A stretch of DNA of 64,000 nucleotides, taken from assembly GCA_045568995.1 (NCBI GenBank), contig JBJKZY010000046.1, positions 1,575-65,574 of the forward strand, given 5' to 3'. Position numbers and translations under genes: made by a program. This document shows positions 11,935 to 52,560 of this stretch, piece by piece. How positions within the stretch are numbered: position 1 is the stretch's first letter; the number at the start of each line of letters is the position of its first letter. Source of the DNA: Fidelibacterota bacterium. GTDB taxonomy: Bacteria; Fidelibacterota; Marinisomatia; Marinisomatales; UBA1611. Under the pieces are notes generated by a model, which worked only from the letters and a program-made list of their open reading frames with translations, had not been told where the DNA came from and made no database searches.

Positions 11935-11937
11935 TAG

Positions 11938-14761: not shown

Positions 14762-14763
14762 AA

Positions 14764-23039: not shown

Positions 23040-23048
23040 GAGAAAATA

Positions 23049-23192
23049 ATGAGCGAGTTACAAGAATCAATTGTTAGAAGTCAAGCTATATTAATGCTGA
23101 ACAGAAATCCAGGAAAAACTTACATTTGGAAACGTGTGCATAATCGATTTATGAGATGTATCAACATATCAAAAAAAATTAATAAACTTTAA
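23049..23192 (+). CDS. Small basic ORF (47 aa) between fadE and fadA
   Basis: Not in the track (<60 aa). ATG at 23049 is preceded by AGGAG with a 6-nt spacer (TAGGAGAAAATAATG). Product MSELQESIVRSQAILMLNRNPGKTYIWKRVHNRFMRCINISKKINKL. No homology recognised. Confidence 0.4.
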   Translation: MSELQESIVRSQAILMLNRNPGKTYIWKRVHNRFMRCINISKKINKL

Positions 23193-23208
23193 TTGGTAGG
23201 ATAAAAAT

Positions 23209-24339: not shown

Positions 24340-24342
24340 TCT

Positions 24343-26704: not shown

Positions 26705-27445
26705 TTATTTTGGCAAGCGTTTCAGGTTCTTTTCGTGAAAAAGATCATCTCTCAAGCCTTTATCAATTTTTATATCTGTAAAAGTAATTTCTGTGGAATG
26801 TTTTTTTGTAATATTTTCCACAAATACCTTTTTTAAAACATGATAGGGTTTTATATGTTCATATTGAAAGACTTTGTTCTTTTCAATGTCCCCTCTTTTA
26901 TTATAAGAACTTTCTTTCAATAGATTTAGCGTCTTTTTTTCTATCCATGATATATGTTTACCATAAGAGGACTTAACTTTCTTTTTTGGAATAATTTCTA
27001 ATACGTAACAATCTAAATTATCTACAATTTCATCACTCAAGCGTGTATAGTTATTATTATTAACGTTACGGTTTGAAAGATCTTCAAAGCTTAAATCAGA
27101 TCCCATAAATGAATCACCTTTTTTCTTAGCAGAAATACGACGAACTCTTTTAAACGCCGGAAGCCACATACGCATATCATCGCCAGAATCATGTTCCACT
27201 TTTAAAAAAGATACCCCTCGATCATCTTTCGGCTCTTGAAACCAAATCATTTGTTTCTTATTTTTATTTAGTGATTTTGAAATCATTATGTTGGTACGAG
27301 ACTTACCCTTTTGATTGGTAAGAATCATTCTTGTTGTATTACTTAAATCTTTTGGAGCAGGTTTTTGATCTAACATTTGGGCAATTTCAAGTCCCGTTTG
27401 TGCACACAAAAAAATTTGAGTAAGCAATATAAATATCCATTTCAT
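26705..27445 (-). CDS. LolA-like outer-membrane lipoprotein-sorting family protein (module A)
   Basis: 246 aa; signal peptide; family motif SFMGSDLSFEDLSNR; ATGA overlap with the upstream RND gene. Confidence 0.75.
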   Translation of the reverse strand: MKWIFILLTQIFLCAQTGLEIAQMLDQKPAPKDLSNTTRMILTNQKGKSRTNIMISKSLNKNKKQMIWFQEPKDDRGVSFLKVEHDSGDDMRMWLPAFKRVRRISAKKKGDSFMGSDLSFEDLSNRNVNNNNYTRLSDEIVDNLDCYVLEIIPKKKVKSSYGKHISWIEKKTLNLLKESSYNKRGDIEKNKVFQYEHIKPYHVLKKVFVENITKKHSTEITFTDIKIDKGLRDDLFHEKNLKRLPK

Positions 27446-29766
27446 TCCATCTTACCTTTTTGGATTAATCTATTTTTCAATAACTCAGTTGTAGTAGCCA
27501 AAAGAGTAATGGTACCTAGAGATGTAGAGATCATTGCAAAAACCATCAGTCCACCAATATATTGGACAGGAATAAAAGCAGAAAACAGAAGAGCACCAAA
27601 TCCCATATTGGACCCTGCATCCAACATTATAGGGTAGCCTACATCTTGAATGACATCCTTGCTAATATTTGATTTATCGGATGTTTTAGCAAGACTACGA
27701 AATTGTGAAATAAAGTGAATTGCAAAGTCAACACCAACTCCAATGATAATTGATGATAGAATAGCAGTAACATGATTAAAAGTAATACCAAAATGTCCCA
27801 TCAGACCAAAGTTAAGTATTATCGCACCGGTAAGAGGTATAATAGAAATCACACCCCATAAAAAACGTTTAAAAAAGAAAGAAATAATTCCTCCTATCAA
27901 GACTAAAGATATTAAAATACTTAATAATGATGATTCAATAACCATCACAACCATATCTCTTATAACAACAATCATTCCTGTCACATCTACTTGACCATGG
28001 AAAGAAGAATTATCTTGAAAGTATTTTGATATTTTGCTGACAAAAGAAAACACCTCCTCTGTACTCATTGTAGAGGAAAAAGATGTAATAAGTGCAGTAG
28101 TATACTCAAAGTTAACAAGGCTCGAAAAACTTTCTGAATCTCCTGACATGGAGTACGCAGTAAACAAATTATTTATCTTTTCTCTTTCCTCCGGTATCGT
28201 TTCATATTTTAGACTATCATCCATAACTGCTCTGTGCATTTGCTTTACAACGTCTGCTACTGAAAAAGAAACCGATATCTTTTCATTTTGATCTATAAAT
28301 ACCTGCAATGAGTCCATGCTTTTCAAAACTCTAGGCTCTTTTATGTCACCTTCCACAAGTACCCTTAAATCCATCGTCCCGCTCATTTCTCTATCCATAA
28401 AATCCATGCTATCTCTTATTTCAGAGCCCTGCTTAAAAAAACTTGCGACATTCACATCTACATTTACCTTAAATAATCCTGCGATGCCAAAAACAACAAT
28501 TAAAATTCCAGAAATCAAGACAGTTCTAGGAGACTTAACTACAAGTTCACTTAATTTTTCCATAATTCTTTCAAATATACTAGAGTCAGTTATTGCTTTG
28601 GACTTTAGGTCCCAATCTTTCAACTTTATTAAAGCAGGTAATGTTAAAGAGCTTAGTAACCATGCCCAAACTATACCAACAGAAATACTAATCCCATATC
28701 CTACTAGAGGTTCTAGCGGAGATGTACTCAAGGTTAAAAAAGCTCCTACGGTTGTGATACTGGTTAAAAAAATTGGTGTTAGAAGAGCATCCATGCTGGA
28801 GGCTATGGCATTATCAACATTCTTATCCTTTCTAATCTCTCGAAAGAATTTGGTCATTACATGTACACCGTCTGAATTCGCAATGGTTAGTAATATAATT
28901 GGCATGGAAGTACTCAATAATGCAAACAAAAACTTATCTGATCCGGTAAATTTAAATGCCCATCCCATAAATCCCATCATGGCTAATAAAGAAAAAACAA
29001 TTACTACCAATACCATACCTACAGCTGGTATGCTACGAAGATTCATTAATAGAACAGATATCATTATTAGCAAACCTGTTTTAACCAATGATTGAACATC
29101 ATCTCGTATCATTCCAGGTATTGAACCTGTTACATAGGCAGTTCCTCCAAAATGAATATCATAGTCAGTTAATACAGATTTACTCAACTCTACAACCTCA
29201 TTTCTAAATTGATCCAAACCTCCTGCATCATACGGATGAACGGTAGTTAACAAATAATCATTTGATTGACTAACATATTGATTTTTTATATTATCATTTT
29301 TTCGAAGATAAGACTCTACCCTTTCAATTCCTTCCTCAGAGAGATTTTGTGATTTCTGAAGGTCTTCAACTTCTATAAAACCATCTATCTGATCAATTCG
29401 AGAAGAAGTGGATATACTAGAAACTTTTTTTACAGTAGAAAGATTTACTAACCCATTTGATAAAACCCAAAGATCGGATAAAGCTCGAGAATTGTAGATG
29501 GACTCACCCTTGTTTCCATAAGCTATAAAAATGATTTCAGTACTTCCAAATTCATTTTGAACCGCATCCCATGTTATTTTTGATTTTAAATTATTTGGCA
29601 ACATTTTCATCATGTCATCATCCATAATAAGAAACTGTATACCCGATGCCATAAAAATGGTAACCAACACAGTGAATAGAATAGTTCTTTTTGGATGAAT
29701 CAAAGCTTGATCTATGCACCAAGCCTTGATGGGTGATTTTGAGGAATTATTCTTCATAGCATTCAA
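27442..29766 (-). CDS. COG1033-type RND/MMPL-family exporter (module A)
   Basis: 774 aa; two blocks of about 6 TM, each preceded by a large periplasmic loop; architecture of predicted lipid exporters (HpnN/MMPL-like). Confidence 0.85.
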   Translation of the reverse strand: MNAMKNNSSKSPIKAWCIDQALIHPKRTILFTVLVTIFMASGIQFLIMDDDMMKMLPNNLKSKITWDAVQNEFGSTEIIFIAYGNKGESIYNSRALSDLWVLSNGLVNLSTVKKVSSISTSSRIDQIDGFIEVEDLQKSQNLSEEGIERVESYLRKNDNIKNQYVSQSNDYLLTTVHPYDAGGLDQFRNEVVELSKSVLTDYDIHFGGTAYVTGSIPGMIRDDVQSLVKTGLLIMISVLLMNLRSIPAVGMVLVVIVFSLLAMMGFMGWAFKFTGSDKFLFALLSTSMPIILLTIANSDGVHVMTKFFREIRKDKNVDNAIASSMDALLTPIFLTSITTVGAFLTLSTSPLEPLVGYGISISVGIVWAWLLSSLTLPALIKLKDWDLKSKAITDSSIFERIMEKLSELVVKSPRTVLISGILIVVFGIAGLFKVNVDVNVASFFKQGSEIRDSMDFMDREMSGTMDLRVLVEGDIKEPRVLKSMDSLQVFIDQNEKISVSFSVADVVKQMHRAVMDDSLKYETIPEEREKINNLFTAYSMSGDSESFSSLVNFEYTTALITSFSSTMSTEEVFSFVSKISKYFQDNSSFHGQVDVTGMIVVIRDMVVMVIESSLLSILISLVLIGGIISFFFKRFLWGVISIIPLTGAIILNFGLMGHFGITFNHVTAILSSIIIGVGVDFAIHFISQFRSLAKTSDKSNISKDVIQDVGYPIMLDAGSNMGFGALLFSAFIPVQYIGGLMVFAMISTSLGTITLLATTTELLKNRLIQKGKME

Positions 29767-29803
29767 AAATGATAAACGAGAATACTATAGCAAGCAAAGA
29801 CTA

Positions 29804-31261
29804 TTAATTATTTAGAATGAACTGTACCAAAGTAATCCAATCGGAAGTATTTACTAATCCATCTCCAGTGTAGTCGGCCGCAGGAGTTTCATCATAGCCG
29901 TATCCAAAATCCATATCTAATATCATAAGAACATCTTGAATATTCATAGCGCTATCAAAATTAACATCACCAGCTACATATTCAGGAAATCCAGGGCCTA
30001 AATAGTCCATAGCATATTTTTGCGCTCTTGCAATCATAGTCTGTCCTCCACCATAATCAAGATCCCAAACAACATTTCCATCACTGGTGACTTCAAACAT
30101 ATGAGCATCATCGCAATCAGTGATAAGGGTGTTCCCATTGGGAAGCCTAAATGCACCCCCCTGCATTTGAGTGTGAAAATTATCTGTGTAAGACCAAATT
30201 GGTGATTCTGGTCCAAAAGGATCCCCATCTAAAATATCATACGCACCACTGTCATTTATTGGTGTTACAAGCTCGAGAACCGCAGAATTGTTTCCATTAT
30301 CATTATTATTGAATAATATGAGATTCCCCGCACCTGGATATCCTTCAGGAATCCAATTCACACTATGCTGATCTCCTAGAAGATGATTAGAATTATTTCC
30401 TCTACCATACGACTGTGGGTTTCCCCATCTGTATAAATAATCTCCTCCCATTCCTGAATTTCCACCCGTGTGCCCTGATGCCTCTTCAGTAGTTGTGCTA
30501 TGATCGATAATATAAATTTCATCATGGTGTCTTGAAGAAAGTGCTATTTGATCAAGCTCTTCATTGTATGCGATGGCATTAAAATGCTTCCAATCAGCAT
30601 TCGATCCTCCAGGCCCTCCGTTACTTCCTACTGTGCCATAGTTTACATCCTGAAGTTCTGGGTGATCTGATACTACTCCGTAATTTGGTAATTCAGGATC
30701 CACATCTTGAACCAAATGATCCCATATGTGCCACTCCCAAACTATGTTGGCATCATTACTGCCTACTGGTTCAATTTCTAAAACTGCTTCTGCCCACATC
30801 TCGTTTAATGAATTATCTATAGTTTCTCTTCCAACAGCATAGGCCTCATTTGCAGTTTTTCTTTCCCAAACAATAACTAATATATTTCCATTTGGAAGTG
30901 GTTCCACATCATGATGATGTTGGTAGGTGTTATTTGCAATTTCATAACTCCAAAGCAGTTCACCATCCCAAGAATATTTCGATATGCCACCACCAACCCC
31001 TCCAGAATTCATCGTAACATTTTGTACTCTGTATGGATATAAAAGTGTACTATCTTGGAGCAAATAAGGCATGCTAGCAGCACCTCTAGTATGACTCCAA
31101 ACATTAATTTCATTTAGGTCATTATCAATTAAATAAGAATAGAAGGTACCTCCACCTCCGCCTCCACCTTGAGCAGGTGAGAATATAGTCATGCCTTCAA
31201 AGGCTTGCCCAATTAATAGGCTAAGTAAATAAAAAGAAAGAATGGTAATTTTTTTCATCAT
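29804..31261 (-). CDS. Secreted arylsulfotransferase (ASST)-family beta-propeller with C-terminal dockerin-like repeats
   Basis: 485 aa; signal peptide; HHHDVEPLPNGNILV, WEWHIWDH, WKHFNAIAYN..ALSSRHHDEIYIIDH, FRLPNGNTLI. C-terminus GDVNFDSAMNIQDVLMIL and DYTGDGLVNTSDWITLVQFIL (two dockerin/EF-hand loops). Confidence 0.7.
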   Translation of the reverse strand: MMKKITILSFYLLSLLIGQAFEGMTIFSPAQGGGGGGGTFYSYLIDNDLNEINVWSHTRGAASMPYLLQDSTLLYPYRVQNVTMNSGGVGGGISKYSWDGELLWSYEIANNTYQHHHDVEPLPNGNILVIVWERKTANEAYAVGRETIDNSLNEMWAEAVLEIEPVGSNDANIVWEWHIWDHLVQDVDPELPNYGVVSDHPELQDVNYGTVGSNGGPGGSNADWKHFNAIAYNEELDQIALSSRHHDEIYIIDHSTTTEEASGHTGGNSGMGGDYLYRWGNPQSYGRGNNSNHLLGDQHSVNWIPEGYPGAGNLILFNNNDNGNNSAVLELVTPINDSGAYDILDGDPFGPESPIWSYTDNFHTQMQGGAFRLPNGNTLITDCDDAHMFEVTSDGNVVWDLDYGGGQTMIARAQKYAMDYLGPGFPEYVAGDVNFDSAMNIQDVLMILDMDFGYGYDETPAADYTGDGLVNTSDWITLVQFILNN

Positions 31262-31370
31262 ATTTATAAAAAAATCTAATTGAATATTTATAAAAACAAA
31301 ATAGGAGTCTATGCAATTATTTGTTTTTTTATCCTTTTAAAATGAAAGTAAATTTACATTAAGATATACA

Positions 31371-32453
31371 ATGACACTTAAAAGAATTTCACGGTTATAC
31401 ATCATACTTGGAAAAAATTTTTCCATCTGGGTATCACCGATTTTTTCAGGTATTTTTGTTTTCTTTCTTCGATTATTTGTTGGAGTAGGACGATTTTTAG
31501 ATCGCATCTTCTACAAATCATTAAAAAATGACCTTTACAATCCAATAATTATTGTTGGAAATCCTAGATCCGGGACCACTTTCCTCCATCGTTTTTTAAT
31601 TAAACAAAATATCGGAAGCGGATCTCAATTATGGCAAATGATTTATCCTTCTATTTTTATTCAAAAACTAATAAAACCACTACTGCCAATCCTGGAAAAA
31701 ATTAGTCCTGCCCGACACCATTCAACAGAAGCTCATAAAACAAGCTTATCTTCCGTTGAAACGGATGACGTTTCTTTATTATTTAGATATCTAGATGGTT
31801 TCTTTTTTTATGGTTTTTTTCTTACGTTTGATGAAAAAAACCTTTTTCATTGGGTAGATCCAAAATTAAGAGATTCATCCGTTCGAGACTTTGCGTGGTT
31901 TGAATCCATGTGGAAGCGAAACCTAATCTCAAATAAAAGAGACAGATATATTGGGAAATTATTTAGTCTGAGTAGCAACCTCCCTTTGTTCCAAAAAAAG
32001 TTTCCTGATGCGAAAATATTGTACATGGTTCGAGATCCATTAAGTGTTATACCTTCTGGTTTGAGTTTAGTGACTGGAGTACTACATAAAAGATTTAATT
32101 TTTGGTCTCTAAATGATAAAATAAAAAATCGTTTTATTAAAAGACTATATAGAGCATTGGTTGAACTTTTAATTAGATTTCACGAAGACTGGGAAAATGG
32201 AAAAATAAATAAGGAAAAAGTGTTTATAGTTCGTTTTGATAGTATGATGAGTGAATTTGATATTCTTATGGATAGTGTACTTGATTTTCTTGACGTGGAT
32301 AAGGATGATGAATTGATCAAAGAAATCAAAATAACATCAGAAAAGCAAAAGCAATATAAAAGTGGGCACAAATATGATCTTGAAAAATTTGGGTTAACTG
32401 AAAATGAAATCAGAACCGATTGTAAAAAAATATATGATACATTTCTTACGTAG
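31371..32453 (+). CDS. PAPS-dependent sulfotransferase with hydrophobic N-terminus
   Basis: 360 aa; 5'-PSB loop IIVGNPRSGTTFLHRFL, 3'-PB motif YMVRDPLSVIPS; N-terminal hydrophobic stretch FSIWVSPIFSGIFVFFLRLFVGV. Confidence 0.8.
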   Translation: MTLKRISRLYIILGKNFSIWVSPIFSGIFVFFLRLFVGVGRFLDRIFYKSLKNDLYNPIIIVGNPRSGTTFLHRFLIKQNIGSGSQLWQMIYPSIFIQKLIKPLLPILEKISPARHHSTEAHKTSLSSVETDDVSLLFRYLDGFFFYGFFLTFDEKNLFHWVDPKLRDSSVRDFAWFESMWKRNLISNKRDRYIGKLFSLSSNLPLFQKKFPDAKILYMVRDPLSVIPSGLSLVTGVLHKRFNFWSLNDKIKNRFIKRLYRALVELLIRFHEDWENGKINKEKVFIVRFDSMMSEFDILMDSVLDFLDVDKDDELIKEIKITSEKQKQYKSGHKYDLEKFGLTENEIRTDCKKIYDTFLT

Positions 32454-32456
32454 AAC

Positions 32457-33059
32457 ATGAAATTGTTTTTCCTACTTATTTTTATCCATAGTTTTTCCGT
32501 AGGCTTAGATCTTCGAGATATTAAAAGTCTGAAAAACTGGAATCTATTGAAAGATAATTCCATAAAAATAGAGTCGTGCATTTATAAAGGCTATCCCATT
32601 AGCAAAGCGGAAACAATACTTGAGCATGATATAAAAGATGTAGCAAGCATTATTAAAGACCTTGATAATTATCCAAAAATCTTTGAAAGAGTGACAAATA
32701 CTCATCGTCTTGGTGAAAATTTAGTCCATATTATTTTGGATATGCCTTTTCCATTTGATGGTCGAGATTATATAGTTGAATATGAAATAATAGAAAAAGT
32801 TGATTCCTGGGTGTTCTCGTTTTCTGCGCAAAAGAACAAGAGGAATCCAAAAATAGATGGCCACATTCGTCTTCCAAATGCTGCGGGTGTATGGATCTTA
32901 AATAAGACTTCAGAGAATAGTACAAAAGTTACCTATGCTTGGAATGGAGAGTTATTAGGAAGTTTCCCTGATTTTGGTTTAGAAAGAGCCTGGATCCAAC
33001 AAGGATCAGAGGTATTAGAGTGGCTTAATCAAGCACTTATAAATAAACAAAAAATATGA
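32457..33059 (+). CDS. Secreted START/SRPBCC-fold lipid-binding protein
   Basis: 200 aa; signal peptide MKLFFLLIFIHSFS; ..MPFPFDGRDYIVEY.. (START-type RD[FY]V motif); length typical of a single START domain. Confidence 0.65.
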   Translation: MKLFFLLIFIHSFSVGLDLRDIKSLKNWNLLKDNSIKIESCIYKGYPISKAETILEHDIKDVASIIKDLDNYPKIFERVTNTHRLGENLVHIILDMPFPFDGRDYIVEYEIIEKVDSWVFSFSAQKNKRNPKIDGHIRLPNAAGVWILNKTSENSTKVTYAWNGELLGSFPDFGLERAWIQQGSEVLEWLNQALINKQKI

Positions 33060-35092
33060 AAAATTTTATACTAATCTTCTTTATATCCTCTGCATTTAGT
33101 AACCTAATTACTCCCGAAGATGGTGCTACCCTTAATCATATTCATGTCTTATTTAAATGGAAGCAAGTTCCAGAAGCTATCAGCTATGACATTCAAATTT
33201 CTGAAGATATAAATTTTTCTTCGATAATTTATGAAGCAACAGATTCGAGCCTTGCGCATATAGATAGAAATAATCTAAGCTGGCAAACAACCTACTACTG
33301 GCGAATTCGAGCTAATTTTAATAACCAAAGCTCCAACTGGTATACACCTTTTTCATTTACAACAACCCAGGCTCTTTCCTCATCATCTATAGATTATGTA
33401 GATGAATCACAATACCAAGGTGGGATAACCGTTTTTGGAGCATTTTTCAATTATTTTTCTGCCGCTATTGATCAAACAGGAAAAGAGATATGGAACTCTG
33501 GAGCAAATAACTTTGTTTACTATAGCTCAAATTCATTTGGTAATGTTTTTGGGTGTAATCTTTTATCAGGTGCTGAAAATAATCTACCGGGAATGGAAAT
33601 TTCCTTTCAAAACGAGATAATCTGGGAAGAACCAAATGATGAATTCCTCCATCATGATATCATTAAACTTCCCAATGGTAATTATTTAGGAATTGTTGAA
33701 ACGAATTCTTTAGGACCTATACCAATAGGAGGATGGACTGCCTCTTTTCAAAACCTAGGATTCCAAGCAGATGGTGTAACGATTGAATTCCCATGGGTAG
33801 GAGATAAACTAGTTGAGTGGGATAAGGACACAAAAGAAGTAGTCTGGACCTGGAGTACTTTTGACCACTTCAGCATGCTAGACTATGATCAGTTTGGAGG
33901 AACCTGGACAGAGGCATACCTAAGTTTACACTATGACTGGACCCATGTGAATGCAGTAATATTTGATGAAAGCGAAAGCGCAATTTATATATCCACCAGA
34001 CATCTTTCTCGCATAACAAAGATTGATTATCCATCTGGTGAAATCATATGGAACCTCGGACATGAAATGCCCTCGGGTCAAGTAAATATAGGAACAGAAA
34101 TCGGATTTAGTTTTCAACATAGTCTTCAAAAATTGGAAAATGGAAATATTCTAACATTCGATAATGGAAACCTTTCTCCTGAATTTCGTGGTACAGACCA
34201 GCCTATTTCGCGAGCAATTGAAATTGAGATAAATGATACCAATGCTAGTCTTGCATGGTCTTATGATTTGCCTCCTGATCTTTTTGGATTTGCTTCCGGA
34301 AATGCACAAAAGCTAGAAAATGGGAATGTGTTAATGACTACAGTAGGAGGAGGTGGTCGGAGTCTTGAAATTAACCCTCAAGGTGAACTTATTTGGGAAG
34401 GTTTATATAATCTTAGTCTACCTGACGGTGCTGTTTACAGAGCTCACAGGATACCAGGACTTTATCCAGCAGCATTTAGCATTATAATTAATAATTATAT
34501 GGAAAATAATGGAGATCCTGGAATTTATCTTCAGCCAGGGTCATCAAATATTTCATTCTCGATTACGAACGAGGGTAGATACATTTTACCATTATTGATC
34601 CAGATTACTGATAGTGAGAATTGGTTTGGATCCCAGACAACAGAAATAATCATAGGCCCTGAGTCAACGCAATCAGTTTCTTTTTCCGGGAACATCACAA
34701 ACTCCACGTACGCGAACCCTATTCAATTGATTGCAGAGCCTATTCATCACCCAAATAAGACTAAAACAGTTTCTGTTAATGCATTCACCAACCCTCTTAG
34801 CAATGACAACCCTAAGAATATTATCTCTAACTTTTTTTCTTTAGAAAGCCCATTCCCAAATCCCTTTAATTCAAATATTTCTATTCATTATAAACTCGAA
34901 AAAGATCAGACAGTACTTCTCCAGATTTTCAATATAAATGGTAAACCAATTCACACATTAATTCATGAAAGACTATCAGCAGGTAGTCACCATAGCCATT
35001 GGAACGCTTTGAATGAATCTACAGGAGTATATATAGTTAAATTAACTTCCTCTAATCAGGTAGAAACTCAAAAGATCCTTTATCTTAAATAA
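33056..35092 (+). CDS. Secreted ASST-family beta-propeller with T9SS-type C-terminal sorting domain
   Basis: 678 aa; ATGA overlap with the START gene; FLHHDIIKLPNGNYLGIVE, HYDWTHVNAVIFDE..YISTRHLSRITKID, FQHSLQKLENGNILTFDNGN. C-terminus PFPNPFNSNISIHY..GVYIVKLTS..QKILYLK. Confidence 0.7.
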   Translation: MKNFILIFFISSAFSNLITPEDGATLNHIHVLFKWKQVPEAISYDIQISEDINFSSIIYEATDSSLAHIDRNNLSWQTTYYWRIRANFNNQSSNWYTPFSFTTTQALSSSSIDYVDESQYQGGITVFGAFFNYFSAAIDQTGKEIWNSGANNFVYYSSNSFGNVFGCNLLSGAENNLPGMEISFQNEIIWEEPNDEFLHHDIIKLPNGNYLGIVETNSLGPIPIGGWTASFQNLGFQADGVTIEFPWVGDKLVEWDKDTKEVVWTWSTFDHFSMLDYDQFGGTWTEAYLSLHYDWTHVNAVIFDESESAIYISTRHLSRITKIDYPSGEIIWNLGHEMPSGQVNIGTEIGFSFQHSLQKLENGNILTFDNGNLSPEFRGTDQPISRAIEIEINDTNASLAWSYDLPPDLFGFASGNAQKLENGNVLMTTVGGGGRSLEINPQGELIWEGLYNLSLPDGAVYRAHRIPGLYPAAFSIIINNYMENNGDPGIYLQPGSSNISFSITNEGRYILPLLIQITDSENWFGSQTTEIIIGPESTQSVSFSGNITNSTYANPIQLIAEPIHHPNKTKTVSVNAFTNPLSNDNPKNIISNFFSLESPFPNPFNSNISIHYKLEKDQTVLLQIFNINGKPIHTLIHERLSAGSHHSHWNALNESTGVYIVKLTSSNQVETQKILYLK

Positions 35093-35093
35093 A

Positions 35094-36161
35094 ATGAGAA
35101 GACAAATACTTATCATCATTATTACCCTTACAGCGGAGGCAGTATACAGTCAATGTGATAGCACTTTTACCTATTTTTCTGATCTGCCTAATAATGTTAC
35201 TATTTTAGTAGGAGATTCCTGCCTTTCCAATAGTGATCTTGCAGTCCTAGACAGTATTATATCACAAAATAATTTAGATTATAGCTCAGCTTTAGATATT
35301 GGTACACAGACATGGTTTAATGGTAGACTTCGATTTTTTGTAGGAGGAAACTATGGAAATAGTTCCGGAGTTAACGATACTATTTATTTACTTCCAGAAA
35401 ACTTTGGAGATCTTACTGGACTTGCTACACTTTACTTGGAATGGCATAGAATATCCGAACTTCCTGAGTCCTTCAGTAATTTGACAGGGCTAATGTCTTT
35501 ATATGTAAATAATAATATTCTAACTTCAATTGGAGACAGCATTGGAAACCTTACGAACCTATATTTTTTAGATCTTGGATATAATGAACTTCTTGAAATC
35601 CCTACATCTATCTGTAGCCTACAAAACCTAACCTACTTGTGGCTTTTCAATAATAATCTCCAAAACCTACCAGATTGCTTTTGCGATATGGGTTTAGATT
35701 GGATTAATGATGATAATGGAGGATATCCTTATTTCGCGATAGGAGCCAACCAGCTTTGTGATAATATAGCAAGCTGTATTGATAGCACTGAACATTTTAC
35801 ATTGAGCCTGGATCAATTTTATTATTCCTTTCCAGTTTATTCCCCTCAAGACTGCGACACAACAACTGCGGCTATTAGAGATCCTATTTTGCCCTACCAA
35901 TTCCAAGTTTCCCCCCCCTATCCCAATCCATTTAATCCAACAGTTCACCTAGATATATATATTCCCCATGATCGAAGAATGGATATCCGAGTATTTGATA
36001 TATTAGGGAATGAGGTTGATATTATTTCCAACCATTCAATCTATGAGTTTGGTCCTCACAGAATATATTGGACATCAAAAAATCATCCATCTGGAGTGTA
36101 TTATATCAGGTTTTCAGATGGTATAGATTCTCAAGTAAAAAAACTAATGTTGATAAAGTAG
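35094..36161 (+). CDS. Leucine-rich-repeat surface protein with T9SS-type C-terminal sorting domain
   Basis: 355 aa; LRRs LTGLATLYLEWHRISELPESFSNLTGLMSLYVNNNILTSIGDSIGNLTNLYFLDLGYNELLEIP..LQNLTYLWLFNNNLQNLP; C-terminus PPYPNPFNPTVHLDI..SGVYYIRFS..VKKLMLIK. Confidence 0.8.
   Translation: MRRQILIIIITLTAEAVYSQCDSTFTYFSDLPNNVTILVGDSCLSNSDLAVLDSIISQNNLDYSSALDIGTQTWFNGRLRFFVGGNYGNSSGVNDTIYLLPENFGDLTGLATLYLEWHRISELPESFSNLTGLMSLYVNNNILTSIGDSIGNLTNLYFLDLGYNELLEIPTSICSLQNLTYLWLFNNNLQNLPDCFCDMGLDWINDDNGGYPYFAIGANQLCDNIASCIDSTEHFTLSLDQFYYSFPVYSPQDCDTTTAAIRDPILPYQFQVSPPYPNPFNPTVHLDIYIPHDRRMDIRVFDILGNEVDIISNHSIYEFGPHRIYWTSKNHPSGVYYIRFSDGIDSQVKKLMLIK
35911..35918 (+). repeat. C8 homopolymer inside the LRR gene, immediately upstream of its T9SS sorting domain
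   Basis: GTT TCC CCC CCC TAT (V-S-P-P-Y). It is the longest G/C homopolymer I saw in the window; others are 6-7 nt. Confidence 0.95.
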
Positions 36162-36168
36162 CATTTAT

Positions 36169-37623
36169 ATGACAAATCGAATCCTATTTTTGGCAAAATT
36201 TTCCTTTCTTATACATCTTATTTTCTTTTCAAAAATCTTATCTGAAAATACAAAACCTCTTTTTTCTGGCTACTTAGACTTCACCTATATAGCAAGACAA
36301 TCCGATCAATCTCTCATTAATATCCCATACAGAATGGGTATTCTTAATATGGAAAGAGAAAGTGAAAATCTTATTTTAAATACCACCTTTGCTCTTGAAT
36401 ATCATGTCAGAGAGGATTCCTATTTCTTAAGTACTAGCAGCCCTCAGGACTTTATCCTTGATATGCGTGAATTATATTTAACCTATAGATCTGGCTCTTA
36501 TGAATTCCGTATGGGCAAGCAGATACACTCATGGGGAAGCGTAGACGAAAATAGCCCCATTGACAATGCTAGTTCATTTGATTATTATTATATGTTTTTC
36601 GGAGGGACAGAGAGAAAAATGGCAACTCTCTCTGGTTCACTGGATTATTATATCGGTAATCTGAAAATAAATACGGTTTTTTCACCATTGCATTCGACCA
36701 ATCGAATCCCACTTGGTGATGATGATTTTCCTGTTGAACTTCCTGTATATCCAGATGCTACAGAAATTCTCCCTATTTCTGGTAGGCCCTATGAAGGTGG
36801 AATACATGGAACTTATTCCTTTGGTTTTGGGGATATCTCTCTTTCTTATTTTTCTGGATATGATAGGACCTTTAATCTTACTGGAGTGAATGTCTATGGC
36901 AGAGGTAGTGATATATCTTTTCCCTATGTTGATATTGTTTATGGGTATAGAAAGACAAATGTTTTGGGTCTTGGAGGTGTGCTACTTAATGATTGGTTTA
37001 CTCTCAGGCTTGATGTTGGATATTTTTCAACTAAAGATAAAAATAAAACTATTGATAGACCTAGCTCTTTTAACACCGTGTATTATGACTCGCTCCATTT
37101 TTCATATCCTCTACATGAAGAATCAATCTATCAACAGGCTACTTTACAGATAGAAATGGAACTACCTTTTAATATTAACCTTTCTGCTCAATATTTTACC
37201 CATGACACACTTAGCTATAGCTCGGACAGTCTACCCGTTGATCAGGAAATAAACATTCCTAATCTTCAGATAGATCCGGAGAATATAACTCCATCTAACT
37301 TTTTTACTCCAGGCATGGGAGTACCAATAGCAATTCTAACCAAAAGCGCTGTCTTTGTTGTAATGGATAGAAAATTTTTCAATAACAGGTTAACTGTTTC
37401 TCTAACATCTATGTTAGATATAGCTGAATATCCTAATATATCTGGAGTCGCAGGTTCCTTGTCAGAGCTTAAAGCTGAATACTCTATCATCCAAAACCTC
37501 CATGGGCTCATTGGTATAACTAGTGTCAAGGGTAACGATTCACATCCAGATAAAGAACTTTACCCATTTAATAAGATGGAAGATTTTTCACATACTAGAT
37601 TTGAAGTAAAATATTTTTTCTAA
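36169..37623 (+). CDS. Outer-membrane beta-barrel protein, DUF1302-like
   Basis: 484 aa; signal peptide; MRELYLTYRSGSYEFRMGKQIHSWGSVDENSPID (the R-E-x-Y..G-[KR]-Q-x-x-x-W-G motif I associate with DUF1302/alginate-export-type barrels); alternating beta pattern; terminal ..FEVKYFF. Confidence 0.65.
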   Translation: MTNRILFLAKFSFLIHLIFFSKILSENTKPLFSGYLDFTYIARQSDQSLINIPYRMGILNMERESENLILNTTFALEYHVREDSYFLSTSSPQDFILDMRELYLTYRSGSYEFRMGKQIHSWGSVDENSPIDNASSFDYYYMFFGGTERKMATLSGSLDYYIGNLKINTVFSPLHSTNRIPLGDDDFPVELPVYPDATEILPISGRPYEGGIHGTYSFGFGDISLSYFSGYDRTFNLTGVNVYGRGSDISFPYVDIVYGYRKTNVLGLGGVLLNDWFTLRLDVGYFSTKDKNKTIDRPSSFNTVYYDSLHFSYPLHEESIYQQATLQIEMELPFNINLSAQYFTHDTLSYSSDSLPVDQEINIPNLQIDPENITPSNFFTPGMGVPIAILTKSAVFVVMDRKFFNNRLTVSLTSMLDIAEYPNISGVAGSLSELKAEYSIIQNLHGLIGITSVKGNDSHPDKELYPFNKMEDFSHTRFEVKYFF

Positions 37624-37636
37624 AAAGGGAAAAAGA

Positions 37637-38602
37637 TTGAAAATAAAGATCAGTGGAACGGGACTATATCTTCCACCAGATATAGAAACATCTAAAAATA
37701 TTGCACCATTAATTGGTAAATCTGAGAATTGGATTCTTGAAAAATCAGGAGTATCAGAGCGTCGTGTTTCAAAAATTGATGTAGATAAAATGGGTGCTAT
37801 AGCAGGTAAACAGGCGCTTGGAGAGCTAAAAAAACCTGACCTAATTATTAATGCATCTGGAGTCCCAAAGCAGACTATACCTGACACATCTACATTTTTT
37901 CAAAAAGAGATGGGGTTTGAAGGAATTCCCTCTTTTAGTATCCATGCTACCTGCCTATCTTTTATAACAGCCTTTCATACTGCCTCAACTCTAATCTCAT
38001 CTAATGCATATAAAAGAATATTAATTATCTCATCTGACAGAGGAACGCGGGGAAGAAATTTTGATGAGCCTGAAAGTTCATCTTTACTTGGAGATGGAGC
38101 AGCTGCAATTTTAGTAGAAGCTTCTACAAAACCAGATCAAAGTGAGTTAATATATTTTAATATGAAGACCTGGCCCAGTGGTGCAAATTTAACTGAAGTT
38201 AAAGGAGGTGGGACAAACAAACATCCACAAGATGATTCTACATCAGTCGCTGATAATTTATTCACAATGGACGGTCCTGCGATCTATAAGATTGCACGAA
38301 AACAAGTTTATAAAATGATGCTTAAAACTCTAAAAAATACTAAGTTAGAAAAAAAAGATATAAATTGGATTATCCCACACCAAGCATCAGGGAAAGCCGT
38401 AGAGGCTTACACTTCAGCTGGTGGTTTTGAAAAAGATAAAGTCATCAATATCGTTTCAAAATTTGGTAACTGTGTTGCTGCTTCTGTTCCAATGGCACTT
38501 TCAATAGCTGTACAAGATGGTAGGATAAAACGTGGAGATATAATTTTATTAATCGGAACTGGAGCTGGTTTATCAGCTGCCTGCGCATTAATTAAGTATT
38601 AA
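37637..38602 (+). CDS. KAS III (FabH)-like condensing enzyme, orphan
   Basis: 321 aa; TTG start. Cys-His-Asn triad motifs are intact: SIHATCLSFITA, IIPHQASGKAVE, FGNCVAASVPMAL. No ACP or other FAS/PKS genes in the locus. Confidence 0.8.
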   Translation: MKIKISGTGLYLPPDIETSKNIAPLIGKSENWILEKSGVSERRVSKIDVDKMGAIAGKQALGELKKPDLIINASGVPKQTIPDTSTFFQKEMGFEGIPSFSIHATCLSFITAFHTASTLISSNAYKRILIISSDRGTRGRNFDEPESSSLLGDGAAAILVEASTKPDQSELIYFNMKTWPSGANLTEVKGGGTNKHPQDDSTSVADNLFTMDGPAIYKIARKQVYKMMLKTLKNTKLEKKDINWIIPHQASGKAVEAYTSAGGFEKDKVINIVSKFGNCVAASVPMALSIAVQDGRIKRGDIILLIGTGAGLSAACALIKY

Positions 38603-39372
38603 TTTCTATTTTTTACTAAAAAATCTTTTGTGAAGATATCATCTTTCAGACCCATATCTGGTTTGTAAGACATTACAGACATTATAGTTTTATTACCGTT
38701 CTCTTTTTCCATTATCATTCTACCAGCGATACTAAAGCCATTTTTAATAATAAAATCAGATACGTATAGGGTTTTATCTTTATTAGACTCACTGATATAA
38801 TATTCAACCTTAGATATGCGCCATGTTTGGCTGTTTACCCATATTTTTCTTGAAAAATAAGAGCTAACATCTTTAGGCCAAGCCATAATGACCTTACATT
38901 GAACACCATCATAATATTCATTTCCGATGTTCATAAGACTATCGGATCCCACATCCCTATTCTCTAAATCTTCATAAGTAAAATCCGTATTTAAAAAAGT
39001 CTTAGATTTTTCTTTAGCTTTTACTTTTTTCGCTTTTTTTATTTTTGGTAAAGAGAACCACTGATCTGTTTTTCCATTGGCATAGACCCAACTTAAAAAG
39101 CCAGTCCCTTTTACAATCTTTGGCTTATGAAATCGTGCCAATGATTTTGATTTAAATATTCCAACATTGTAAAATTTTTCATAGCGCGTAAATTCTCTAA
39201 TTTTGGTTTTTATTTTACGTTTTTTCTTTCTTGTTATTTCGAGCTTTATTTCCGTGATAGAAGTTTCAGGTTTTGGATGGGAGGCCACATATGATAAAAT
39301 CTCTTCAGGTGTTAAATCTTGAGCAATAATAAAGCCACTAATTAAAAAGATTCTAATAATTTGAATTATCAT
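38599..39372 (-). CDS. LolA-like outer-membrane lipoprotein-sorting family protein (module B)
   Basis: 257 aa; signal peptide; family motif TFLNTDFTYEDLENR; paralog of 26705..27445. Confidence 0.75.
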   Translation of the reverse strand: MIIQIIRIFLISGFIIAQDLTPEEILSYVASHPKPETSITEIKLEITRKKKRKIKTKIREFTRYEKFYNVGIFKSKSLARFHKPKIVKGTGFLSWVYANGKTDQWFSLPKIKKAKKVKAKEKSKTFLNTDFTYEDLENRDVGSDSLMNIGNEYYDGVQCKVIMAWPKDVSSYFSRKIWVNSQTWRISKVEYYISESNKDKTLYVSDFIIKNGFSIAGRMIMEKENGNKTIMSVMSYKPDMGLKDDIFTKDFLVKNRN

Positions 39373-39674
39373 TTTTTTTCTTTGTAGACAAAAAAGATCG
39401 ATAATGGAGTAAACAATATACTTACAATAGAAATTGTTAAAAAATCTTGTTTATGTTTAAGCTCCAAATAACCTGCAATTTGCAAGCACAAGAAAACATA
39501 ACCAATAATAATAAAATCAAAATAAAATTGAAAAATATATGTTCCAAGTTCTTTTATTGTCATAGAGTATTTTAATGATAAGCCACCATCTGCACCCAAT
39601 ATGTACATAATACATAATAGAGTAACTAATATTAAGGCACCACTTAAATTCTTATCTTTATTGACTGATTTCAT
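39369..39674 (-). CDS. Small 3-TM membrane protein specific to module B
   Basis: 101 aa; ATGA overlaps on both sides (with the RND and LolA-like genes); three hydrophobic segments. Confidence 0.6.
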   Translation of the reverse strand: MKSVNKDKNLSGALILVTLLCIMYILGADGGLSLKYSMTIKELGTYIFQFYFDFIIIGYVFLCLQIAGYLELKHKQDFLTISIVSILFTPLSIFFVYKEKK

Positions 39675-41974
39675 TTAAATAAAAATTTTGGTTTTGTTAA
39701 ACTAGTTAATGCTGGAAGAGTTGCTAGTGCACCAAATAGACAAAAAGATATAGATCCCATCACCAAAGTTCCAAATATTTGCACAGGAACAAATACAGAA
39801 AAAAGAAGAGCTGAAAAACCAATAACAACCGATAAACCATTAAACAATATTCCTTTACCAGATATACGAAAGGTATTTGTAATCGCCTGATCAAGAGAAT
39901 CACCATTTCTAATATGGTCACGTAAGTGCCAGAGAAAATGAACCGTATAATCAACACCAACACCAACAAGAATACTCGTAAGAAGCATTGTCGTAACATC
40001 CAAGGGAATATTTAAATAACCCATTAATCCAAACATCATAATTACCGAAACTCCCATAGGTAGTGTTGCAAATAGTCCACCTACGAAAGACCGAAATACA
40101 ATGGCCATGATAATAAAGATAATAATTACAGAAACAAGGAGACTAATTAATTGTCCATTTACAATCATTCGACTCAAAACTCCAAGCAATGTGGCTCCTC
40201 CTGTCAATTCCATAGGTGCATCATCATAAAAATTAGCTTTAATAAATTGTTCAGTATCATCGACAATATCAGCTATTGTACTCGTTCTAACCTCTTTCAT
40301 TCTAAGCAGTATTTGCGTATAGTTAGGCTCTTCCATATCATCTAAAAGGACATCAAACTCATCATCATCACCTGCGATCGAATATAAAAACATGTATTGA
40401 GATATTAAATCTCTCTCTTTAGGGATCACGTCATACTCAGACTTTCCAGCATTAAACCCAGAGTGCATTTTTTTTATTACATCAACAATGGAATATGATT
40501 TAGTGACAATATTATATTTATTTTTGATATGATCAGTCAATTGTTCGATATTCTTTAATACTTTTGGATCAAAGATATCACCCTCAACAAGAATACTCAA
40601 TTGCGTTGATCCTCCAAATGCATTACTAATTTTACTATTCGCAATTTTGACGCTAGAGTTTGCAGGAAAATAACTGTCAGGATTTGTGTCAACTTTTAAA
40701 TCTTTTATCCCCATACTCAACCATAAACCACCAAATATCAAAATTGATAATACTTGAATATTATATTTTGTGAAAAATCTTCCCATAGACACTAAAAATG
40801 CATTTATATAAACCATACTTTTTTCTTTTGATAAATAAGTTGGTCGCGGTAACAAAATAAGTATCGATGGTATTAATAAAATACTAAGTACAAACCCTAC
40901 TAATATACCAAAAGAAACTAATACACCCATTTCTCTAGCGCGAGGTAAGAGATGTGATAATAATGATAAAAAGCTAACCATTGTAGTTAATCCAGCAAGC
41001 AAAATAGGAATCCCAACCTTTCGAATTGTCCTTTTTAATATTTGCTCTCTTTGACCGTTAGGGTCTACTTTAGAATATTCAAAATAATGGGAAATGATAT
41101 GAATCCCATAATTACTCGCAATAGCAACAAGCATAACAGGGATTAATGTTCCCACAAATGCTAAGGGTAAATCAAGCCATCCCATAATTCCAAATGTCCA
41201 TATTATAGATAGGACCACAACAAAAAAGGGCAGGAATACACCAGTCCAGCTCCTAAAAGATATCATAAGCAGAAGAATACCTAAACCCAATGCTATGGGA
41301 GTATATACCCTCATATCACGCTGCATACTTTCTACAACTGTTGCCCTAGTGATAGGCAAACTGGAAACATAAAATTCTTCTGGTCCATTATACCTATTCA
41401 CTAACTCAAATATTTTTTTTCTGAATTCAAATTCATCATATTCAAAAGAAGAATTTATTTGGCCTATAAAACACATTGTCTTAAAATCGATAGAAACTAG
41501 GTTACCCAAAGCTCCCGATTTTTCAATGCGATCTCTTAGTACAGAAAAACTGAGAGAATCACCAGGGATTTCCTCCAAAATAGATTCAATATTAAAGCCA
41601 TTTTGATCTGGTATGATTTGCTTTTGATTGAATATTGATGTCACTTTACTTATCAGACTAATTGATTCTAAAGAGTCATTAAACGAAGCTAATTTACTTA
41701 GAGTGCTTTTAGAGAATAGGCTATCGGATTCAACCCCAATAATTACGATATCACTACCTGAAAATAATTCATCAATTTTTTCCATTGACTTGACAATCGC
41801 ATGTTCTCTTGGCAATCCTGATCTTAATCCCGCATCCATCTCTAATTTAAAAATTTTCCAACCAAGTATTACTGTCAGCAATAATACTGCGGCTATGATG
41901 CTCCTAGGATAATGTGCATCAAATTCAAATAGTTTGTTTGAAATTCTTCTCAGATTCATAATATTACAGATCAT
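39671..41974 (-). CDS. COG1033-type RND/MMPL-family exporter (module B)
   Basis: 767 aa; same 2 x (loop + ~6 TM) architecture as 27442..29766. An alternative start MNLRRISNK at 41959 is possible. Confidence 0.85.
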   Translation of the reverse strand: MICNIMNLRRISNKLFEFDAHYPRSIIAAVLLLTVILGWKIFKLEMDAGLRSGLPREHAIVKSMEKIDELFSGSDIVIIGVESDSLFSKSTLSKLASFNDSLESISLISKVTSIFNQKQIIPDQNGFNIESILEEIPGDSLSFSVLRDRIEKSGALGNLVSIDFKTMCFIGQINSSFEYDEFEFRKKIFELVNRYNGPEEFYVSSLPITRATVVESMQRDMRVYTPIALGLGILLLMISFRSWTGVFLPFFVVVLSIIWTFGIMGWLDLPLAFVGTLIPVMLVAIASNYGIHIISHYFEYSKVDPNGQREQILKRTIRKVGIPILLAGLTTMVSFLSLLSHLLPRAREMGVLVSFGILVGFVLSILLIPSILILLPRPTYLSKEKSMVYINAFLVSMGRFFTKYNIQVLSILIFGGLWLSMGIKDLKVDTNPDSYFPANSSVKIANSKISNAFGGSTQLSILVEGDIFDPKVLKNIEQLTDHIKNKYNIVTKSYSIVDVIKKMHSGFNAGKSEYDVIPKERDLISQYMFLYSIAGDDDEFDVLLDDMEEPNYTQILLRMKEVRTSTIADIVDDTEQFIKANFYDDAPMELTGGATLLGVLSRMIVNGQLISLLVSVIIIFIIMAIVFRSFVGGLFATLPMGVSVIMMFGLMGYLNIPLDVTTMLLTSILVGVGVDYTVHFLWHLRDHIRNGDSLDQAITNTFRISGKGILFNGLSVVIGFSALLFSVFVPVQIFGTLVMGSISFCLFGALATLPALTSLTKPKFLFK

Positions 41975-45614: not shown

Positions 45615-45627
45615 ATTCATTCCTTTA

Positions 45628-51873: not shown

Positions 51874-51891
51874 TTTAAGATGATTTACTAT

Positions 51892-52245
51892 TTATTTTTT
51901 ACCAGTCTGAGTATATCCTACCGCACCATATCGATCACTTAGTACAATGACTCCATCCATATCTCTATTGGAACCAATATAGGCTGTTGGTTCTTCGTAT
52001 TTATTATAGGTTTGTACATAACCATTAGCATCTTTACCCGTACCTAGATAAAGTGTGCGCTTTTGATCTTGATTATAAGCAGTAATAAATCCCCCATGCC
52101 CATCATCTTTAATGGTAATTGAATTCACAACAATGTCACCAAAATTTTTATTGTCTGATTCTAAATCATCTGCTGCAATTAACACAAAAATCAGACACGA
52201 TCCTAAGAATCCTATTAAAACACTTTTTATATCAATTTGGTTCAT
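51892..52245 (-). CDS. Hypothetical membrane-anchored protein
   Basis: 117 aa; one N-terminal TM; no recognised domain. Confidence 0.5.
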   Translation of the reverse strand: MNQIDIKSVLIGFLGSCLIFVLIAADDLESDNKNFGDIVVNSITIKDDGHGGFITAYNQDQKRTLYLGTGKDANGYVQTYNKYEEPTAYIGSNRDMDGVIVLSDRYGAVGYTQTGKK

Positions 52246-52289
52246 ATTCTTCTCCTATTTAAATAATTTTTTTAAAAAACATCTCAAAC

Positions 52290-52556: not shown

Positions 52557-52560
52557 ATAA

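Follow-up and report, generated by a model that had tools for sequence, protein, structure and literature searches.

We analysed a 64-kb stretch of DNA (the window) from a Marinimicrobia (SAR406) genome, in which a 15-kb locus at positions 26705-41974 encodes sulfotransferases of two types together with proteins predicted to carry hydrophobic ligands through the cell envelope. An initial annotation had described 12 open reading frames (ORFs) at this locus, and our ORF list reproduces them all at the same coordinates. Families were assigned with Pfam gathering scores and NCBIfam curated cutoffs. All domain calls made earlier hold, either directly by Pfam or NCBIfam or, for the START, barrel, dockerin and three-transmembrane-segment proteins, by further tests. 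Six genes lie on the plus strand (31371-38602) at intervals of 3, −4, 1, 7 and 13 nt, and encode, in this order, a sulfotransferase dependent on 3′-phosphoadenosine 5′-phosphosulfate (PAPS), named ST, a START-domain protein, an aryl sulfotransferase (ASST9), a leucine-rich repeat (LRR) protein, an outer-membrane barrel (BAR) and a condensing enzyme (KAS). Divergent from them on the minus strand are the genes of a second aryl sulfotransferase (ASSTd), an RND pump (RND1) and a LolA-like protein (LolA1), from 31261 to 26705; 37 nt lie between the first two genes, and the last two overlap by 4 nt. Another minus-strand triplet, RND2/TM3/LolA2 (41974-38599), has adjoining genes that overlap by 4 nt. 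The 109 bp between the ASSTd and ST operons (31262-31370) presumably hold the promoters. With gaps of at most 13 nt or overlaps, the spacing of the six plus-strand genes is as described initially; that they form a single operon is read from this spacing, since a scan of 26-42.6 kb for sigma-70 promoters and intrinsic terminators gave counts equal to the shuffled expectation and was uninformative.

Conservation was analysed by scanning one genome per GTDB species with ST, which yielded 365 species-level loci encoding an ST relative. The best 80 of these 365 formed the synteny set, with ST as the anchor gene; they come essentially all from Marinimicrobia/SAR406 metagenome-assembled and single-amplified genomes, with ST identities of 57-90%, and are designated below by L numbers. 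More than 1800 ST homologs were found in metagenomes, and such homologs are abundant in the marine ones. All proteins of the window were mapped onto these loci, and presence was scored in a view of about ±10 kb around ST, the denominators being the loci that extend far enough to show the gene. The START gene was found immediately 3′ of ST in 73 loci out of 73, and the barrel was present in 53 out of 53. A divergent ASST gene adjoined ST in 63 of 65 loci; this divergent ASSTd/ST layout is kept in nearly all loci, with a gap of 126-153 bp in the five loci listed for it. The second ASST was present in 26 loci out of 27 and the LRR protein in 24 out of 27, always adjoining ASST9. Over the same 27 loci, KAS directly followed the barrel in 18, at least one RND/LolA module lay within about 10 kb in 18, and the RND2-TM3-LolA2 module was found in 10. 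The invariant core is ASST | ST-START-barrel, and the rest consists of frequently linked accessory modules. Absence of synteny in related genomes had been set as the refuting test of the initial proposal; this refutation fails because the core is kept across the 80 loci, and chance juxtaposition is not borne out. The arrangement recurs in dozens of species-level genomes. The hydrophobic-ligand carriers and the barrel had been counted as integral to the system, which agrees with START and barrel genes being co-operonic with ST in every locus examined. Treating the whole 15 kb as a single unit went further than the data: the core is invariant, while the RND/LolA modules and KAS are each found in only about two thirds of the complete loci.

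The anchor enzyme, ST (31371-32453, plus strand), matches Pfam Sulfotransfer_3 (PF13469; 71 bits, E 2e-19, cutoff 27) and Sulfotransfer_1 (PF00685; 39.6 bits, E 5e-10, cutoff 22). Its two PAPS-binding loops, recognised at the outset, are PRSGTT (residues 65-70) and RDP...S (221-229), and both are invariant in 13 homologs. These correspond to the 5′-phosphosulfate loop and the 3′-phosphate motif of PAPS-dependent sulfotransferases. The hydrophobic N-terminus was found as well, as one strong segment at residues 21-39; it is consistent with the placement of ST at the inner membrane, a topology that we infer from this segment. By sequence, the closest solved relatives are 2z6v (E 0.009) and 2zq5 (E 0.13), both marginal, which we take to be the mycobacterial sulfotransferases Stf9 and Stf1. 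A 133-aa ORF antisense to the ST and START genes (32180-32581, minus strand) has a low-complexity translation and was regarded as spurious, probably no gene.

A search for PAPS synthesis genes had been advised, and its outcome differed between the window and its relatives. No homologs of PAPS synthase, CysQ, TetR or redoxin were found elsewhere in the 64-kb window. In relatives, where neighbours left unassigned were clustered and scanned, a bifunctional sulfate adenylyltransferase/adenosine 5′-phosphosulfate (APS) kinase, that is a PAPS synthase (NF004040, 878 bits), and CysQ (TIGR01331, 299 bits) were identified, both passing the cutoff, and were embedded in the operons. They lie inside the cluster in L063, L065, L066, L067 and L079, and one or the other is also present in L025 and L054. 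In L079, the genes for RND, PAPS synthase, CysQ, LolA, ASST and LRR follow each other in this order on one strand and overlap. The order is RND2, TM3, LolA2, PAPS synthase, ASST and LRR in L065 and L066, and PAPS synthase, CysQ and ASST in L067. From these same-strand orders we conclude that PAPS supply is, in relatives, co-operonic with an enzyme type that is itself PAPS independent and with lipid-transport genes. That several relatives have PAPS synthase and CysQ within the operons that encode ASST and RND/LolA is new here, and dependence of the system on PAPS is supported.

Both ASSTs are predicted to be exported, as they combine signal-like N-termini with a surface-targeting C-terminal domain. 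ASSTd (29804-31261, minus strand; Arylsulfotrans E 1e-19) is a beta-propeller followed by a type I dockerin. ASST9 (33056-35092, plus strand; Arylsulfotrans E 2e-25) is a beta-propeller followed by a type IX secretion system (T9SS) C-terminal sorting domain (CTD; Por_Secre_tail E 1.5e-10). Scores against PF05935 and PF14269 (cutoffs 24.2 and 27) were 71.1 and 40 bits for ASSTd and 89.9 and 65.6 bits for ASST9, whose best match in the PDB was 9kf4/9kf6, labelled ‘Sulfotransferase’ (E 2.5e-14 for 9kf6). A 33-sequence alignment of each Marinimicrobia ASST family was then compared with E. coli CFT073 AssT using hhalign. The active site of AssT consists of His252, His356, Arg374 and the sulfo-histidine His436 (PMC13426309). 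ASST9 aligned over 249 columns with a probability of 94.7%, its invariant H200, H297, R315 and H355 facing these four residues. In ASSTd, H226, R244 and H299 align with His356, Arg374 and His436, and the HHHD motif (H117) with His252; all four are invariant or nearly so in the family alignment. Both families look catalytically competent, because the equivalents of the AssT active-site residues, including the sulfo-histidine, are conserved. A single-sequence phmmer search of the PDB with ASSTd returned dockerin matches only, and the relationship to AssT required profiles and the E. coli sequence. With AssT and its partners DsbL/DsbI (PMC13426309), the Marinimicrobia enzymes thus share the fold family, the active-site residues and an extracytoplasmic location, as well as thioredoxin-fold genes that adjoin the cluster in some loci as dsbL/dsbI adjoin assT. 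They differ by a very distant similarity, seen in profile comparison only, by surface display through T9SS or dockerin, and by genetic coupling to a PAPS pathway, whereas AssT has no known donor pathway. The thioredoxin-fold gene in question encodes a 406-aa thioredoxin/redoxin-fold protein beside the LolA1 end in L008 (4020-5240, minus strand), at the same position in L013, and in L074, and recalls dsbL/dsbI near E. coli assT (PMC13426309).

The dockerin assigned to ASSTd in the initial annotation is confirmed: the tail (29804-29986) gives E 3.5e-4 in isolation, and the family profile E 7e-6 against solved dockerins. In four loci, a T9SS CTD replaces it in a protein of about 800 aa (L039:7472-9877, L040:7521-9950, L051:7523-9880, L068:4449-6878), so the surface-targeting module of ASSTd is interchangeable. 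Type I dockerins on secreted enzymes that are not cellulolytic were seen on an AhpC/TSA redoxin (L046:4893-5384, minus strand), on a trypsin-like peptidase (L034:17236-19641, minus strand) and on ASSTd itself (29804-29986, minus strand), which hints at a cohesin-dockerin surface display system in Marinimicrobia. The LRR protein (35094-36161, plus strand; LRR_8, Por_Secre_tail) carries a T9SS CTD like its partner ASST9, so that the surface display proposed earlier for ASST and LRR proteins is predicted here too. In five loci the two are fused in a single ORF comprising ASST, LRR and usually the T9SS CTD (L030:3226-6807, L039:13217-16801, L044:7260-9977, L054:5298-7877, L067:14237-17119), and such fusions are Rosetta-stone evidence that ASST9 and the LRR protein may act together.

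The last plus-strand gene, KAS (37637-38602), has a FabH-type β-ketoacyl-ACP synthase III (KAS III; ACP, acyl carrier protein) match and encodes a stand-alone condensing enzyme of the FabH clade. The Cys-His-Asn triad reported for it is present in HATCLSF, IIPHQAS and GNCVAAS. By sequence KAS is not the housekeeping FabH, because it fails all NCBIfam FabH cutoffs and related genomes carry a separate canonical FabH, which passes (TIGR00747, 358-368 bits). Its closest PDB matches are CorB and MxnB, with 200 bits at 37% identity, while no FabH exceeds 155 bits; with the type III polyketide synthase (PKS) family Chal_sti_synt_N the match was only E 0.0055, below cutoff. CorB and MxnB, of the corallopyronin and myxopyronin pathways, form an alpha-pyrone by joining two acyl chains head-to-head (PMC5506619, PMC5724707). 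KAS shares with them the triad, an insertion absent from FabH and a GNC(I/V)xAS motif (PMC5506619, PMC5724707, PMC4578411), all of which points to a pyrone product. It differs in being encoded without PKS assembly lines or carrier proteins nearby, and the identity is moderate. The remark that no ACP partners KAS proved accurate, as no PKS, ACP or CoA-ligase gene was found in the locus or in related loci.

In L063, a PAP2-superfamily gene of the lipid phosphatase type (13088-13666, plus strand) follows the barrel, where KAS sits elsewhere. An 810-aa ORF in L004 (14799-17231, plus strand) joins BAR (residues 1-484) and KAS (496-810); it is probably a frameshift or assembly artefact, and was doubted because the fusion of an outer-membrane barrel with a cytoplasmic enzyme is topologically implausible. 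Upstream of the locus, a beta-oxidation operon (20650-26688, plus strand) encodes TetR, an acyl-CoA dehydrogenase, a thiolase and a FadB-like 3-hydroxyacyl-CoA dehydrogenase/enoyl-CoA hydratase. It ends 17 nt from the convergent LolA1, and the FadB-LolA1-RND1 adjacency is kept down to about 46% identity. This operon could supply beta-ketoacyl and acyl thioesters to KAS, or the adjacency could be plain synteny.

The remaining genes encode the transport parts. LolA1 (26705-27445, minus strand), the last gene of the ASSTd-RND1-LolA1 operon, encodes a predicted periplasmic carrier of hydrophobic ligands, with a signal-like hydrophobic N-terminal segment; it matches LolA_like (171.7 bits, E 1.7e-50) and DUF1329 (PF07044; 33.3 bits for a cutoff of 23.1). 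LolA2 (38599-39372, minus strand), a second such carrier and the last gene of the RND2 operon, matches LolA_like only (E 9e-40). RND1 (27442-29766, minus strand) is a predicted inner-membrane pump of the MMPL and probably the HAE3 type, with 12 predicted transmembrane segments and MMPL, Patched and Sterol-sensing matches. RND2 (39671-41974, minus strand; MMPL E 2e-46), of the same type, is a paralog about 25% identical to RND1. TIGR00921 (HAE3) was the best NCBIfam match of both over their full length, with 189 bits for RND1 and 285 bits for RND2, both below the cutoff of 351.9. TM3 (39369-39674, minus strand) always lies between RND2 and LolA2; this 101-aa ORF has the three hydrophobic, predicted transmembrane segments described for it, and gave no family match. 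A 259-aa ORF antisense inside the RND1 gene (28316-29095, plus strand) has a low-complexity translation and was also taken to be spurious, probably no gene. LolA1 together with RND1 was found in 18 of 27 complete loci. The ASSTd, RND1 and LolA1 genes overlap in L065 and L066, and in 13 related loci RND1 and the ASST gene have a TetR gene between them. L015 and L016 encode, between LolA1 and RND1, a canonical FabH whose score passes TIGR00747. In the RND-less loci L034 and L045, the flanking genes were considered as possible lipid-biosynthetic ones and rejected, being RecJ, canonical FabH, acyl-CoA dehydrogenase, YbeY, CorC and MazG.

The START protein (32457-33059, plus strand), a predicted periplasmic lipid-binding carrier with a signal peptide, matches Pfam START with only E 0.016. 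Many homologs at 52-59% identity carry PF01852, and the AlphaFold model (pLDDT 86) has the helix-grip START fold, Foldseek returning START structures with TM 0.73-0.81 and E 2e-11, and TM 0.70-0.81 when 3qsz and the StAR/STARD structures are taken together, which bears out the START call. BAR (36169-37623, plus strand), with a signal peptide and a C-terminal ...KYFF, belongs to a small family (360 representatives among 1.84 billion proteins). The protein of the window had no match by Pfam or NCBIfam, nor in a family-profile search of PDB sequences. Nevertheless, 24 of 47 distant full-length relatives match PF06980 (DUF1302; best E 2e-10). The AlphaFold model is mediocre (pLDDT 61, loops below 50) and supports only ‘beta-barrel, AlgE/Occ-like’, its best structure matches being AlgE and Occ porins at TM about 0.5; AlgE/Occ are also the published best structure matches of DUF1302 (PMC13499233). 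The DUF1302-like barrel of the initial annotation is supported by both lines. A second barrel paralog, about 30% identical, directly adjoins LolA1-RND1 in L015, L016, L021, L029, L058, L059 and L073 (for example L016:2862-8254).

The resemblance of these parts to a DUF1302/DUF1329/propeller/COG1033 cassette and to the aryl-polyene LolA/RND module, noticed at the outset, agrees with the literature (10.1101/072470, PMC6394551, PMC8253772). Cassettes of the first kind cofit, and act on hydrophobic compounds (10.1101/072470, PMC6394551). With AmeABCD of Castellaniella defragrans (PMC6394551; 10.1101/072470; 10.1101/2020.07.04.188060; PMC13499233), the locus has in common a barrel that is probably DUF1302-related, a LolA-fold protein passing the DUF1329 cutoff, an RND that is probably of the HAE3 type and secreted propellers, and both are implicated in the movement of hydrophobic molecules across the envelope. 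The propellers are nevertheless of different types, ASST-type with catalytic histidines here and Ycf48-like BNR (COG4447) there; the Ycf48/BNR propeller family gave no match on any ORF scanned. In addition, the barrel is too diverged for a direct PF06980 match and the HAE3 scores are below cutoff, the RND/LolA genes are not obligatorily linked, and the locus adds the PAPS-sulfotransferase, START, LRR and KAS genes, with PAPS synthase/CysQ in relatives. A LolA-like plus RND module has also been put forward as the route by which aryl-polyene lipids reach the outer membrane (PMC8253772). As in the aryl-polyene/flexirubin set of ApeL (LolA-like), ApeM (RND) and ApeN (PMC8253772), a LolA-like protein is paired with an RND, probably of the COG1033 type here, beside genes for a lipophilic product, predicted in the case of the locus, that is bound for the outer membrane. 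Unlike that set, the locus has sulfotransferases and contains neither an ApeN/DUF3261 homolog nor type II fatty acid synthase-like polyene machinery.

Taken together, the locus very probably encodes a single conserved PAPS-dependent sulfation system coupled to hydrophobic-ligand transport. Since PAPS is made and used inside the cell, the exported ASSTs have no evident access to it and would thus need an aryl- or enol-sulfate donor; for the same reason, a sulfated carrier is a possible way to bring activated sulfate to the surface. A precedent is found in caprazamycin synthesis, a two-step sulfation in which Cpz6 makes triketide pyrones that, once sulfated by the PAPS-dependent Cpz8, become the donors for the ASST Cpz4 (PMC4257720, summarising Tang 2013; PMC13426309). 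In both systems, a condensing enzyme that forms pyrones or is related to one that does, a PAPS-sulfotransferase and an ASST are encoded together, and a small sulfated carrier is proposed. The differences are that the ASSTs are secreted here, with a T9SS CTD or dockerin, and cytoplasmic in the Cpz case; that the locus adds START, LolA-like, HAE3 RND and outer-membrane barrel proteins and has no antibiotic biosynthesis genes; and that the host belongs to an uncultured marine phylum of the FCB group, there to Streptomyces. The locus would work as if a two-step sulfation of the Cpz type had been coupled to a conduit of the AmeABCD/DUF1302 type, while being a member of neither.

Given this precedent and the proximity of KAS to CorB/MxnB, we came to favour a sulfated carrier feeding the ASSTs over a structural sulfolipid. 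Our tentative proposal, which could well turn out otherwise, is that the locus encodes a cell-envelope sulfation relay, in which a sulfated lipophilic carrier is exported and used by the surface ASSTs as sulfuryl donor. The cytoplasmic CorB/MxnB-like KAS would condense two acyl thioesters, giving a lipophilic product of enol or phenol-like nature, for example a dialkyl-4-hydroxy-2-pyrone; where KAS is not found at the locus, another hydroxylated lipophile would substitute. ST, a PAPS-dependent enzyme that is probably membrane associated, would then sulfate this carrier with PAPS from the bifunctional ATP-sulfurylase/APS kinase, and CysQ would clear the by-product 3′-phosphoadenosine 5′-phosphate. 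The HAE3 RND pumps may extract the amphiphilic sulfate ester from the inner membrane, the LolA-like and START carriers would take it across the periplasm, and the DUF1302-related barrel would let it through the outer membrane. At the surface, the ASSTs would load the sulfuryl group on their catalytic histidine, one of them displayed via the type IX secretion system with its LRR partner and the other via its dockerin, and then transfer it to acceptors on the surface or outside the cell, for instance phenolics, glycans or proteins, with regeneration of the carrier. In a more specific and rather doubtful form of this proposal, a pyrone-type shuttle charged from PAPS would travel through the RND/LolA/START/DUF1302 conduit and be discharged by the T9SS- and dockerin-displayed ASSTs onto surface glycans, proteins or phenolic organic matter, dissolved or particulate.

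Several points weigh against the relay. Its chemistry is predicted: we infer the nature of the carrier and of the acceptor, and that the carrier acts as donor. CorB and MxnB themselves lie inside the FabH clade (PMC4578411), KAS is only 37% identical to them, and they use carrier-protein-bound chains from PKS lines, which are absent here. In the caprazamycin case, moreover, Cpz6 is a type III PKS, whereas the condensing enzyme here is a CorB/MxnB-like ketosynthase of the FabH clade. KAS or RND/LolA is each absent at the locus in about one third of the complete loci, meaning either that these genes are elsewhere in the genomes concerned or that the carrier is independent of them. RND pumps of this class could equally efflux unrelated hydrophobic compounds. 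With its one predicted hydrophobic segment, the catalytic domain of ST is not confidently placed in the cytoplasm, and PAPS synthase and CysQ are missing from the 64-kb window.

The initial annotation had seen in the locus a candidate for sulfated-lipid biogenesis and delivery. In such a system KAS and ST would build a lipid as end product, RND, LolA, START and barrel proteins would install it in the outer membrane, and the ASSTs and LRR protein would remodel it or be peripheral. The same parts list and synteny fit this scheme, as does lipid binding by the START and LolA folds. In mycobacteria, the SL-1 locus combines a sulfotransferase with an MmpL exporter, and the marginal solved relatives of ST, 2z6v and 2zq5, are presumably mycobacterial Stf sulfotransferases as well. 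Outward movement of membrane lipids is known for relatives of HAE3 such as HpnN (PMC6394551), and a PAP2 lipid phosphatase stands in place of KAS in L063. What this scheme leaves without a role are the best-conserved partners of ST, namely the secreted ASSTs with an intact sulfo-histidine (63/65 and 26/27 loci), and it does not explain a PAPS synthase co-operonic with ASST. The core moreover contains no acyltransferase, ACP or other lipid-assembly gene, and KAS is absent in one third of the loci. The part of the earlier proposal that stands is thus the conserved PAPS-dependent system with hydrophobic carriers, while an end-product lipid leaves two ASSTs unexplained. The interpretation should shift towards a sulfate relay to surface ASSTs, with sulfated-lipid biogenesis kept as a live if unlikely rival.

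Less probable than this is that the barrel, LolA, START and RND proteins make up a conduit of the AmeABCD/DUF1302 type, through which exogenous hydrophobics or phenolics are taken up or expelled, with sulfation by the ASSTs and ST serving detoxification or solubilisation. Uptake would feed the adjacent beta-oxidation genes: the TetR-acyl-CoA dehydrogenase-thiolase-FadB operon abuts LolA1 in the window, and FadB, LolA1 and RND1 remain neighbours to about 46% identity. As FadB and LolA1 point towards each other, they are not co-transcribed. DUF1302/DUF1329/RND cassettes have been tied to growth on fatty esters, monoterpenes and aromatics (10.1101/2020.07.04.188060, PMC6394551, 10.1101/072470), TetR adjoins RND1 in 13 loci, and in some loci a second barrel lies inside the LolA1/RND1 module. 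Yet in 9 of 27 loci the core (ST-START-barrel and ASSTs) has no RND or beta-oxidation gene nearby, and PAPS synthase/CysQ in the operons argue that sulfation, not transport, is central. Even then, the surface ASSTs would have to be supplied with a sulfuryl donor, and this leads back to the relay. Alternatively, the locus may be an assemblage of unrelated neighbours: the ST/START/barrel/ASST core, a generic RND/LolA efflux system and a stray FabH paralog. The absence of RND/LolA and of KAS, each in about a third of the complete loci, and the presence of the RND2 module in only 10 of 27 would fit this, as would the fact that TetR-regulated RND pumps are common as stand-alone units. We consider it very improbable, given that ASSTd-RND1-LolA1 are nearly contiguous in the window and overlap in L065 and L066, that PAPS synthase/CysQ genes lie between the RND and LolA genes and upstream of ASST in L079, L063, L065 and L066, and that KAS follows the barrel at 13 nt or less in 18 loci over the whole 57-90% range of ST identity.

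For decades, biocatalysis has made use of bacterial aryl sulfotransferases that do not depend on PAPS. Except for Cpz4, the natural substrates and physiological roles of the bacterial enzymes are unknown, according to a 2026 review (PMC13426309). The locus links secreted ASSTs to a PAPS-sulfotransferase, to PAPS synthase/CysQ, to a pyrone-synthase-like enzyme and to a trans-envelope lipid conduit. This linkage yields a testable pathway by which activated sulfate would leave a Gram-negative cell, and the question of the natural ASST donor becomes testable with it. It also suggests a candidate cargo for the functionally uncharacterised DUF1302/DUF1329/HAE3 family. If the sulfation relay is true in its more specific, pyrone-based form, it would give secreted bacterial ASSTs their first physiological route of donor supply, would assign a cargo to a conduit of the DUF1302 type for the first time, and would be a microbial source of organosulfates in the ocean interior that had gone unrecognised. 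Among the uncultured bacterial groups of the dark ocean, SAR406 is one of the most abundant, and the core is carried by hundreds of species-level genomes. The chemistry could therefore have a bearing on the cycling of organic sulfur in the sea and on the biology of the cell surface. Literature searches combining Marinimicrobia/SAR406 with sulfotransferase terms returned nothing relevant, and no description of the locus was found in the literature searched.

Other parts of the window also deserve mention. A heme biosynthesis cluster (10500-16281, minus strand) encodes ALAD, coproporphyrinogen oxidase, ferrochelatase, URO-D and porphobilinogen deaminase; the ORF of the latter is 505 aa long with the deaminase domain at residues 4-233 only, and may be a fusion. 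Two tandem glyceraldehyde-3-phosphate dehydrogenase paralogs (48872-50889, minus strand) lie near phosphofructokinase and class II aldolase (44541-46818). The window is rich in surface proteins, as further secreted proteins, two of them with T9SS sorting domains, are encoded at 51010-54571 and 60219-63602, both on the minus strand: a GH16-like protein, a beta-helix protein with a T9SS CTD and a 1127-aa Laminin_G_3/Big_5 protein, also with a T9SS CTD.

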